Shown: in pieces, positions 46,201-49,200 of the stretch
Layout: every line of letters begins with the position of its first letter
How positions within the stretch are numbered: the first letter of the stretch is position 1
NCBI RefSeq assembly: GCF_050920415.1
Contig: NZ_CP169309.1
DNA length: 64,000 nt
Reading direction: 5' to 3' (one strand)
From: Escherichia coli
GTDB taxonomy: Bacteria > Pseudomonadota > Gammaproteobacteria > Enterobacterales > Enterobacteriaceae
Made by a program: the position numbers

Positions 46201-49200
46201 GAATTACAGCAAAAACGCAATGGAGGCTAATGGCATGAAATTGACGCTGAAAAACCTTAGCATGGCGATCATGATGAGTGGAATGATCATGGGAAGCAGT
46301 GCAATGGCGGCGGATAGCAACGAAAAAATAGTCATCGCCCATCGCGGTGCCAGTGGATATTTACCGGAGCATACGCTGCCAGCAAAAGCGATGGCTTATG
46401 CGCAGGGAGCGGATTATCTGGAACAGGATTTGGTGATGACGAAGGATGATCATCTGGTCGTTCTGCATGACCACTATCTTGACCGGGTAACCGATGTCGC
46501 CGATCGTTTCCCGGATCGGGCGCGTAAAGATGGCCGTTACTACGCGATAGATTTTACGCTGGATGAAATTAAGTCGCTGAAATTTACCGAAGGTTTCGAT
46601 ATTGAAAACGGTAAAAAAGTGCAGACTTATCCGGGGCGTTTCCCGATGGGTAAGTCTGACTTCCGGGTGCACACCTTTGAAGAAGAGATTGAATTTGTTC
46701 AGGGGTTAAATCACTCCACTGGGAAAAATATTGGTATCTATCCAGAAATTAAAGCGCCGTGGTTCCATCATCAGGAAGGGAAGGATATTGCAGCAAAAAC
46801 GCTGGAAGTGCTGAAGAAATATGGTTACCTCGGTAAGGACGACAAAGTTTATTTGCAATGTTTTGATGTTGATGAACTGAAGCGCATTAAAAATGAGCTG
46901 GAACCCAAAATGGGCATGGACCTCAATCTGGTACAGTTGATTGCCTATACCGACTGGAATGAAACGCAGCAGAAACAGCCAGACGGAAGCTGGGTCAATT
47001 ACAACTACGACTGGATGTTTAAGCCCGGGGCCATGAAACAGGTGGCGGAATATGCTGATGGTATTGGTCCGGATTATCATATGTTGATTGAGGAGACATC
47101 GCAGCCAGGTAATATCAAACTCACTGGCATGGTGCAAGATGCTCAGCAGAATAAACTGGTAGTACATCCTTACACCGTGCGGTCAGATAAGCTGCCTGAA
47201 TACACTACTGATGTGAATCAGTTATATGATGCTCTGTATAACAAAGCGGGTGTAAATGGGCTGTTTACTGATTTCCCTGATAAGGCAGTAAAATTCCTTA
47301 ATAAAGAGTAATGCTACTGCAGGATGGCGTTCATGCGCCATCCTCTGCTAAAACGAAATAATGCTACTACCGGTTATTCTTTTCATTAACGGGTGCATCC
47401 TGTAAAAAGATGCCAACATAATTTTCGTAAAACTCATTCGTTAAAAAAGCTAACGCTGGGCATTGTTATTCTTTAAACAGTATGAATATGCCTCAATAAT
47501 AAATTGTAATGCAGTTTATACTGTAAAGTATTATTCTAATTTCGGAAAGGTAAAGAAAATATTAATGTATCTTATTAATTTATCATATTGTTCTTGGGTG
47601 AATGCTGTTTGCACACCTTCAGGGCAATATTTACCAGTAATAACCAGTTGCCCATTGCTGTGTTGTACCATTAAACCTTCTTTTTCCTTTGGATCTACAA
47701 AATTAGAATTATCAAATGTGAAGATATTCTTTTCCTGTTTTGAGTAAGCAAAGAAATCTCGTGTATAGCTGAAACTATCATTTATTAATGGTGCTAACTT
47801 TTTGTCGGCGATATCGCTAAGCTCACCACTTAATTTATTGATGTATTTCATTTGCTTCAATTTTTTCTGCGCTTGCACAATTTGCTTGTAGGTATTTTCA
47901 ATTTTTTTAGAAGAATTCTTAAATACATCATAGCGTTCCCCGGAGGATGTGGATTTGTACCATTCTGTATTTTTCTCAGAATGTAGTAGCAGGTCTGTAT
48001 ATTCTTTTTGCTTGCTGTAAAGTTGAGTTCTTATATTTAACTCGTGGATAAATTTATAAATTTTGTCAGAGTTGGTTATTTTTGGTGTGTCTTTGTCTGT
48101 CAATGTTTGGATCTTGTTATTGATATTTTCTTTTGCAACATGCTCATTGATGATGTTAATTGCAGTTTCATATTCATTTAAATTTATTGTTCTTTGTGAA
48201 AGAAACCCTTCTTTGCTTTCGATACTCAAAACACCTTCGTTGTTTTCACCTCGGGTAAAGGTAAGGATATAGGGTTCATAATCTTCTGCAAATTCATTTT
48301 TATACGTTATGACATGCTCGACAAAATGTCTTATTGGTACGAAACCATAACTGTGAACGTCAATTTTTTGTGTTTTGATACTATCAATTTCATCTGAGGC
48401 TTTCGTGAAAAAAGCCAATAAATTAGCTATGTTGTCTGCTGAGGTTGATAACCCGAATCTACTTTGAGATATTTTTAGAAACTCATTGCAAAAAATCTCA
48501 AGTTTCGCGGTTTGTTGTGATTCTTTGTAAATTTCTGCTGTTTGCAATTTATTATTTTGTAAAATATTACAGCGAGATAAGTGAATAGATGTATTTGGCA
48601 TAAATGATTCCTTGTAGTGTGAGTTAACAAGATACAATTTAATCTTTGCAGAATATATTCACTATCAAATTTAGCTCATTTTATTACGAAGACCTTTACG
48701 CATGTTAGAAAGTATCATTATTGTTAATAAATACGGTAATAAGTAACAAACAGATATTGATAACTTCCCTGACAAGTTATTAGGTATCCCACTTGAAGAT
48801 TGAGAATGGCTCCAGAGTAAACTGTGTACTGTTCGCCGGAGTGTCATTACTCTCAACAATCGGTTTTGACAGTGAGTCGGGCGCTTCATACCGGTTTCTA
48901 CCTGGAGTCATTGTCACTTCTCCCAACTGAATAAATATATATCGCCAATTCACAAAGTGGGCCAAAATCAGGTGAAAACGAATTATTACGCCTGGTAAAG
49001 ACTATAGTACAACTAAGTGTGGCGAATCAGGCAGTCTTGCATTTGTCATCAATCTCATGTCTTACATCAAATTTTTCCACTCACCACGAGTTGTTCCGTA
49101 CACGTTTGTAGTAAAAACAGTGGACTGCCTTCTACCGGCTTTTCTTTAGCCAGCAACGAAATCTGTCGATAGAAGGTTGGTTCGAGAGGAACGGAACACA

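Follow-up and report, generated by a model that had tools for sequence, protein, structure and literature searches.

Between glpQ and inaA, the 64,000-nucleotide stretch of Escherichia coli DNA analysed here (the window, from contig NZ_CP169309.1 of assembly GCF_050920415.1) carries an AT-rich islet that is a foreign insertion at a single site. It contains one long open reading frame (ORF), hereafter the orphan gene, which is a true protein-coding gene. We consider it likely that the islet consists of this one real gene together with its own conserved 456-bp upstream region, and that the product is a soluble, mostly alpha-helical protein confined to Escherichia. The orphan is an ordinary horizontally acquired gene that is uncharacterised, and a literature search found no published study of it. 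It had been pointed out by a first-pass annotation made from the sequence alone, to which we add the exact borders of the islet, whether it was gained or lost at the site, how it is distributed in the population, a test of coding status, a hypervariable segment within the gene and an annotation artefact. The coordinates of the features are collected in Table 1.

The borders were placed by aligning occupied sites (those of the window and of O157:H7) to the empty sites of K-12, SMS-3-5 and Escherichia albertii. Occupied and empty sites differ by exactly the islet, with a junction ambiguity of 1 nt, and the islet is made up of 186 bp located 3' of the ORF, the ORF itself and the 456-bp upstream spacer. 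The insertion costs the convergent glpQ/LysR terminator hairpin the final base of its 3' arm, whereas K-12, SMS-3-5 and E. albertii retain the whole hairpin at their empty sites. The outgroups E. albertii, Salmonella enterica and Citrobacter share the gene order nrdA-nrdB-yfaE-MFS-LysR-glpQ-glpT (MFS, major facilitator superfamily), with a gap of 43-116 bp between the LysR gene and glpQ and nothing in between. The empty sites of K-12 and SMS-3-5 are the same as that of E. albertii save for a few point differences, and show no scar. Given that the outgroups lack the block and that these two empty sites match E. albertii, the islet is therefore an insertion that took place in the E. coli lineage. 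By the same alignments, K-12 holds the ancestral empty state at the glpQ junction, and not a deletion. The first-pass annotation was right that K-12 lacks the gene. It had estimated the glpQ-inaA interval as about 1 kb shorter there, and the measured difference is 1,715 bp (462 bp in K-12, 2,177 bp in the window); the deletion in K-12 that it had left as an option does not agree with an empty site of the E. albertii type.

The reverse order of events, in which the position originally held the gene and K-12 and other lineages deleted it, would find some footing in the LysR/MFS deletion junction that K-12 shares with the window, from which K-12 is readable as one further deletion, and in the fact that other deletions did happen at the locus. 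However, E. albertii, Salmonella and Citrobacter are all without the gene and the hairpin is whole in E. albertii, the K-12 and SMS-3-5 sites are scarless, a GC content of 0.33 is foreign to the host genome, and there is no relative in any other genus. We regard this explanation as already largely refuted and extremely improbable. Site alignment and a repeat scan found no target-site duplication, terminal inverted repeats or mobility gene at the islet, that is, none of the three hallmarks of an insertion sequence or transposon (the third being a transposase), and neither a donor nor mobility machinery (integrase, transposase, tRNA site, direct repeats) was identified for it. A degenerate second copy of the sequence just 3' of glpQ (TAATGCTACT...CATCCTGT) is present at 47357..47405, within the islet's left end and 50 nt rightward of the first copy; either the flank of the donor or a duplication that arose on insertion could have left this trace.

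The composition of the islet sets it apart from its surroundings. The G+C content (GC) of the ORF is 0.318 and its GC at third codon positions (GC3) is 0.30, compared with a GC of 0.45-0.58 in the flanking genes and a GC3 of 0.50-0.65 in glpT, glpQ, inaA, yfaE, nrdB and glpA. Windowed GC drops to 0.30-0.35 across about 47200-49000 and is about 0.52 on either side, and the window minus the islet has a GC of 0.517. The codon-adaptation index (CAI) of the orphan, with the flanking genes as the reference set, is 0.525 as against 0.68-0.80 for those genes. The AT-richness that had been judged by eye at first pass is thus borne out by computation, and codon usage is also clearly different from that of the flanks. 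The 356-codon ORF with its AAGGAA Shine-Dalgarno sequence was likewise found as previously described; an alternative in-frame TTG start at 48637, giving 368 amino acids, lacks a comparable ribosome-binding site. The product (41.5 kDa, isoelectric point 6.7) is hydrophilic, with a grand average of hydropathy of -0.64, and lacks both a signal peptide and transmembrane segments. It is enriched in Lys, Ile, Glu, Asn and Ser, so that Ile joins the Lys, Asn and Glu already noted at first pass for this product of no assignable family. The deviating composition and codon usage, together with outgroups that lack the block and have an intact empty site, mark the islet as horizontally acquired. The first-pass description of a low-GC, strain-variable, horizontally acquired single-gene insertion is supported by composition, by outgroup synteny and by carriage in 19% of genomes.

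Several lines of evidence bear on the coding status of the ORF. The longest open frame in 2,000 shuffles had 172 codons (mean 72) as against the 356 of the orphan, and the other five frames of the orphan sequence reach at most 71 codons. Nine indel-free alleles differ at 121 segregating sites, equivalent to at least 125 mutations, and contain no stop codon; stop-creating changes make up 5.5% of the possible substitutions, and under neutrality the expectation that the frame would stay open is about 0.001-0.002. Among the uninterrupted copies examined, 17 of 18 have an intact frame, the other (L024) being a true frameshift. Pairwise ratios of nonsynonymous to synonymous divergence (dN/dS) for the orphan are 0.4-0.7 (about 0.5), and about 1 between near-identical alleles. 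In the same strains, glpQ, glpT, inaA and yfaE have ratios of 0.01-0.1, with one outlier (yfaE versus SMS-3-5, 0.31). The three codon positions have nearly equal shares of the segregating sites (41:36:44), and the C-terminal ~90 residues are nearly invariant among the aligned alleles. Selection protects the frame of this gene, and its amino-acid sequence appears to be only weakly constrained.

Part of the variation lies in a hypervariable segment of the gene, the cassette of codons 160-200, which occurs in the allele alignment as two main types and one mosaic type. Between the window and the locus L017, a close relative, 34 of the 120 nucleotides inside the cassette differ (28%), compared with 14 of 951 elsewhere in the gene. 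For codons 156-194, dN is 0.26-0.35 and dS is 0.46-0.73. In the structure model, it falls on the linker of lowest confidence.

The orphan corresponds to ECs3123 (NP_311150.1) of O157:H7 Sakai. The O157:H7 and window copies are the same gene at the same site, each of 356 codons, with an identity of 85% for the protein and 93% for the DNA. In the O157:H7 allele, two 1-bp indels separated by about 35 nt compensate each other, and the allele there reads NIQTCYYIL[IR] in place of the majority EYTDLLLHSE. The NCBI Prokaryotic Genome Annotation Pipeline (PGAP) calls the copy that is identical to the window's (strain MFDS1022581), and most non-O157 alleles, 'frameshifted', and this label applies to the intact 356-codon copies of the window and of L001, L007, L009, L013-L017, L022, L025 and L027-L029. 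The window allele reads in the majority frame (EYTDLLLHSE) and does not qualify as a pseudogene. The label seems to arise because the comparison was apparently made to the O157:H7-type allele WP_001358666.1 with its compensating indels, and from the allele sequences we judge it to be an annotation artefact. As intact copies are labelled pseudogenes, the orphan will therefore be undercounted in pan-genome tables and association studies.

The spacer upstream of the gene shows little variation. Across 48572-48871, six comparisons gave 0-2 differences per 100 nt, which is below the level of the ORF and no higher than that of nrdB. Used as a query, the spacer matched 1,048 genomes, all at an identity of at least 95% and 516 of them at 99% or more. 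It presumably serves as the regulatory region of the orphan. A structured RNA or small RNA in this conserved spacer was considered and rejected, as there was no Rfam match at E up to 1 and no significantly stable fold (z = -1.2). The spacer includes a small 43-codon ORF, located in a locally GC-richer patch 178 nt upstream of the orphan. Homologues of this small ORF were found in E. coli only, are rarely annotated by gene callers and belong to no family. A toxin-antitoxin pair was also rejected, since the orphan is a single gene and the small ORF at that distance has no family.

Homology searches detected no relatives of the orphan outside Escherichia among about 15 billion proteins. Pfam gave no match with the single sequence or with each allele, NCBIfam none that was significant (best E = 0.05, 12.7 bits versus a cut-off of 409), PHROGs none that was significant (best E = 0.07), and PDB sequences none with the single sequence or a profile, the best matches in these family searches being noise at E of 0.05 or above; no defence model of PADLOC-DB 2.0 matched either allele at E up to 1. 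A word-indexed search of 5.8 billion protein clusters yielded 23 matches, all at least 79% identical, and every one with a named source came from E. coli. An exhaustive hidden Markov model (HMM) profile search of 1.84 billion representative proteins returned fragments of the orphan's own family and two false leads. P0077 is a cadherin-repeat protein that shares a short motif, a spurious match. P0078 was rejected as a diverged relative: because the contig it comes from (L004) contains about 200 indels within 1.5 kb, we attribute it to a noisy long-read artefact. Of 100,044 species-representative genomes scanned, a contaminating E. coli contig provided the single match; the 3.5-kb contig L005 (JAIJJM010000334.1) of a 'Collinsella sp.' metagenome-assembled genome, 95% identical in DNA to the window, is E. 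coli contamination. Searches with tblastn gave no match in phages and nothing real in plasmids, the PLSDB 'plasmid' match H123 (NZ_CP141089.1) being a mislabelled 4.9-Mb E. coli chromosome. In agreement with the first-pass reading, no characterised housekeeping family was matched in Pfam, NCBIfam, PADLOC, PHROGs, PDB or the 1.84-billion-protein HMM search. As far as these searches reach, the gene is restricted to Escherichia, and E. coli is the one species in which it was found. The AlphaFold2 model is of low confidence (predicted local distance difference test, pLDDT, 43.8 over the whole protein, 41.9 over its C-terminal half) and is mostly helical with two small sheets. Foldseek against AFDB50 recovered the orphan's own family alone, with a template modelling (TM) score of about 0.3, and nothing else credible. 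An internal duplication of the two halves was rejected: the Smith-Waterman z-score is 3.7 and is reached by 3 of 1,000 shuffles, and the profile-profile probability is 0.1%.

The ORF is carried by 1,052 of 5,426 complete E. coli genomes (19%), with one copy per carrier, always chromosomal and at the same site. Identity to the window allele is at least 95% in 22 genomes and 90-95% in 1,030. The gene is thus not common to essentially all E. coli, and K-12 is without it, as anticipated at first pass. The exact protein of the window is also encoded by E. coli M863, which we take to be a member of a cryptic Escherichia clade. The full set of orphan, LysR and MFS genes is found in O157:H7 and others, and in O157:H7 it constitutes the DNA that is absent from K-12 between glpQ and inaA. 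The orphan is kept and LysR/MFS deleted in the window, in avian pathogenic E. coli (APEC) O78, in PCN033 and in one assembly labelled 042 (with IS1 in the orphan). SMS-3-5 has intact LysR and MFS genes and no orphan, K-12 has neither the orphan nor an intact LysR/MFS pair, glpQ directly adjoins inaA in CT30, and an IS1-mediated deletion leaves a 201-nt orphan stub in GDSC2227PM. The deletion junction of the LysR/MFS remnants in the window is exactly that of K-12, and the LysR remnant, yfaH, is the decayed regulator that had been recognised beside the orphan at first pass. Each of the four combinations of islet (present or absent) and LysR/MFS (intact or deleted) occurs, even though a mere 250 bp or so separates the two sites, and recombination or recurrent events are therefore required. 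The dS of the islet outside the cassette is 0.03-0.18, lower than the 0.2-0.3 of the flanking genes in the same strain pairs, which is consistent with such events.

Other observations concern the strains and the wider locus. Comparison of window positions 44872..51600 with L002, L003, L007, L010 and L011 shows that glpT, glpQ and inaA of the window are about 5% diverged in DNA (dS 0.16-0.30) from K-12, O157:H7, SMS-3-5 and others, which is high within E. coli. The divergence profile is mosaic, L017 being nearly identical to the window in inaA and 10-13% different at 46972-47271. Two assemblies labelled E. coli 042, L008 (NZ_CP042934.2, 4.69 Mb) and L022 (NC_017626.1, 5.24 Mb), differ at the locus: in one, IS1 interrupts the orphan and the LysR/MFS deletion is of the K-12 type, and in the other the orphan is uninterrupted and the LysR and MFS genes are partial. 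Probably one of these assemblies is mislabelled. Finally, E. albertii, Salmonella and Citrobacter have no inaA (window 49489..50139) between yfaE and the MFS gene, the gaps there measuring 216 bp (L018, 3442-3659), 1 bp (L019, 3647-3649) and 3 bp (L020, 3589-3593), and judged from these gaps inaA may be another insertion at the locus in the E. coli lineage.

The orphan product is probably best described as a dispensable, conditionally expressed accessory protein, and as a non-enzymatic binding protein with a variable middle. Selection holds the frame open while the amino-acid sequence is under weak constraint, and two better-conserved end regions flank the codon 160-200 segment, of which there are two old, very different versions. 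Under this model, the gene would normally be silenced as AT-rich foreign DNA, and it would be expressed from the spacer under particular conditions only. The protein may act in binding or as an adaptor without enzymatic activity, its variable middle contacting a changing partner in the host, a phage or a competitor. A number of results weigh against this description. The dN/dS of about 0.5 and the even spread over codon positions are close to the expectation for decaying sequence. The gene is intact in roughly 70% of carriers and inactivated in about 30% (among 40 evenly spaced carriers, 10 have IS1 within the gene and 1 has the stub alone), and 81% of genomes do without it; any function is therefore dispensable. 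Neither a consensus sigma-70 promoter nor a terminator was found on the orphan's strand, and with a pLDDT of 42-44 the helical or adaptor-like description therefore comes from secondary-structure prediction only.

Some of the same results would fit an ORF that is a functionless leftover of an old insertion, drifting and being lost, with its frame still open through young or recombination-spread alleles. The dN/dS values (near 1 between very similar alleles), the almost even distribution of segregating sites, the IS1 insertions, frameshift, stub and several deletion configurations, and the carriage in only 19% of genomes all agree with such a remnant, as does the O157:H7 allele, which tolerates a 10-residue out-of-frame stretch resulting from its two compensating indels. 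However, those two indels restore the frame within 35 nt, the 125 or more substitutions in nine alleles include no stop even though 5.5% of the possible ones would create it (neutral P of about 0.001-0.002), the frame is open in 17 of 18 uninterrupted copies, and the C-terminal ~90 residues are almost invariant. We regard a remnant as unlikely, and keep to a gene under selection for its frame.

As to the class of the accessory protein, an effector-like host-interaction protein is our leading guess, a rather doubtful one that draws on genomic style, restriction to one genus and the two-type segment. It gained no positive evidence; the N-terminal composition is non-discriminating, and E. albertii, which carries type III secretion systems, is without the gene. 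A more specific version, in which the orphan is a new substrate of type III secretion (through LEE, the enterocyte effacement locus, or E. coli type III secretion system 2, ETT2) that acts in host cells and has a host-driven middle segment, appeals to the style of the locus and to its first 25 residues, with 44% Ser/Thr/Asn/Gln/Pro and 8% Asp/Glu/Lys. This composition ties with those of three ordinary ORFs among 42 and gives P = 0.10 and 0.03 against the rest of the protein; there is also no similarity to known effector families (Pfam, NCBIfam and wider searches), no adjacent chaperone gene (the sole nearby ORF being that of 43 codons and no family), no copy in E. albertii and no mention of the gene in the literature searched, and we find a type III substrate quite improbable. 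A single-gene anti-phage defence or abortive-infection protein, with a variable middle that senses a phage component, would account for a strain-variable gene of foreign composition that stands alone and has a sharply bounded hypervariable segment, and its frequent inactivation suggests a cost. Defence genes generally spread widely across taxa, and this family is limited to one genus, has no phage or plasmid copy, matches no PADLOC model even at E = 1 and shows no recognisable enzymatic or sensor domain; the gene also lies outside defence islands and not beside mobile-element genes. This makes a defence protein very improbable. The first-pass view that the sequence does not decide between these classes is upheld, as defence, effector and toxin all gained no positive support, and a binding protein with a variable middle is still the description we prefer.

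Table 1. Features of the orphan islet, its surroundings and a second AT-rich islet in the window.
Feature	Coordinates	Strand	Remarks
Inserted AT-rich islet	47345..49057	none	1,713 bp, GC 0.332
Orphan gene	47531..48601	minus	356 codons; ATG at 48601, TAA at 47531-47533
Shine-Dalgarno AAGGAA	48608..48613	minus	6 nt 5' of ATG 48601; read directly from the sequence
Hypervariable two-type segment (cassette)	48004..48123	minus	codons 160-200; sharply bounded in allele comparison
Upstream spacer	48602..49057	minus	456 bp; presumed promoter/regulatory region; better conserved than the gene
Small ORF (MTPGRNRY...FKWDT; MTPGRNRYEAPDSLSKPIVESNDTPANSTQFTLEPFSIFKWDT)	48780..48911	minus	43 codons; GGGAGAAG ribosome-binding-like site; status uncertain
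glpQ/LysR convergent terminator hairpin	47320..47344	none	CAGGATGGCG-loop-CGCCATCCT; read directly from the sequence
LysR remnant (yfaH)	49067..49309	minus	243 bp; annotation transferred from 100%-identical strain MFDS1022581
MFS remnant	49298..49408	plus	111 bp; right of the islet, adjoining the LysR remnant
Islet with presumed elaD	13306..14481	minus	391-codon ORF; AT-rich, GC ~0.34; between rbn/elaC and a peptidase gene

The orphan had been presented at first pass as the only candidate for an undescribed function in the window. It is not the only low-GC islet there: a second ORF is also AT-rich (GC ~0.34), and going by its position we take it to be elaD, the gene of a known deubiquitinase related to Salmonella SseL, which is already characterised. 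The two islets are alike in consisting of a single low-GC gene with housekeeping flanks and no mobility genes. ElaD, however, has a protease fold that can be recognised, and it has relatives in other genera; the orphan lacks both. Among enterobacteria, orphan genes of restricted taxonomic range are typically AT-rich and silenced as foreign DNA. The orphan resembles them in its AT-richness, its limitation to a single genus, its weak constraint, its frequent loss and its poor AlphaFold prediction, whereas such genes do not in general have a sharply bounded two-type cassette.

O157:H7 and many extraintestinal and avian pathogenic E. coli carry the orphan, which adjoins a regulator that was recently tied to virulence. 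Its site exists occupied, empty, disrupted by IS1 and deleted in otherwise similar backgrounds, which amounts to a clean, small natural experiment and makes the orphan easy to test for a phenotype. If no phenotype is found, it would stand as a well-documented case in which the frame of an orphan gene is kept and its protein sequence drifts.

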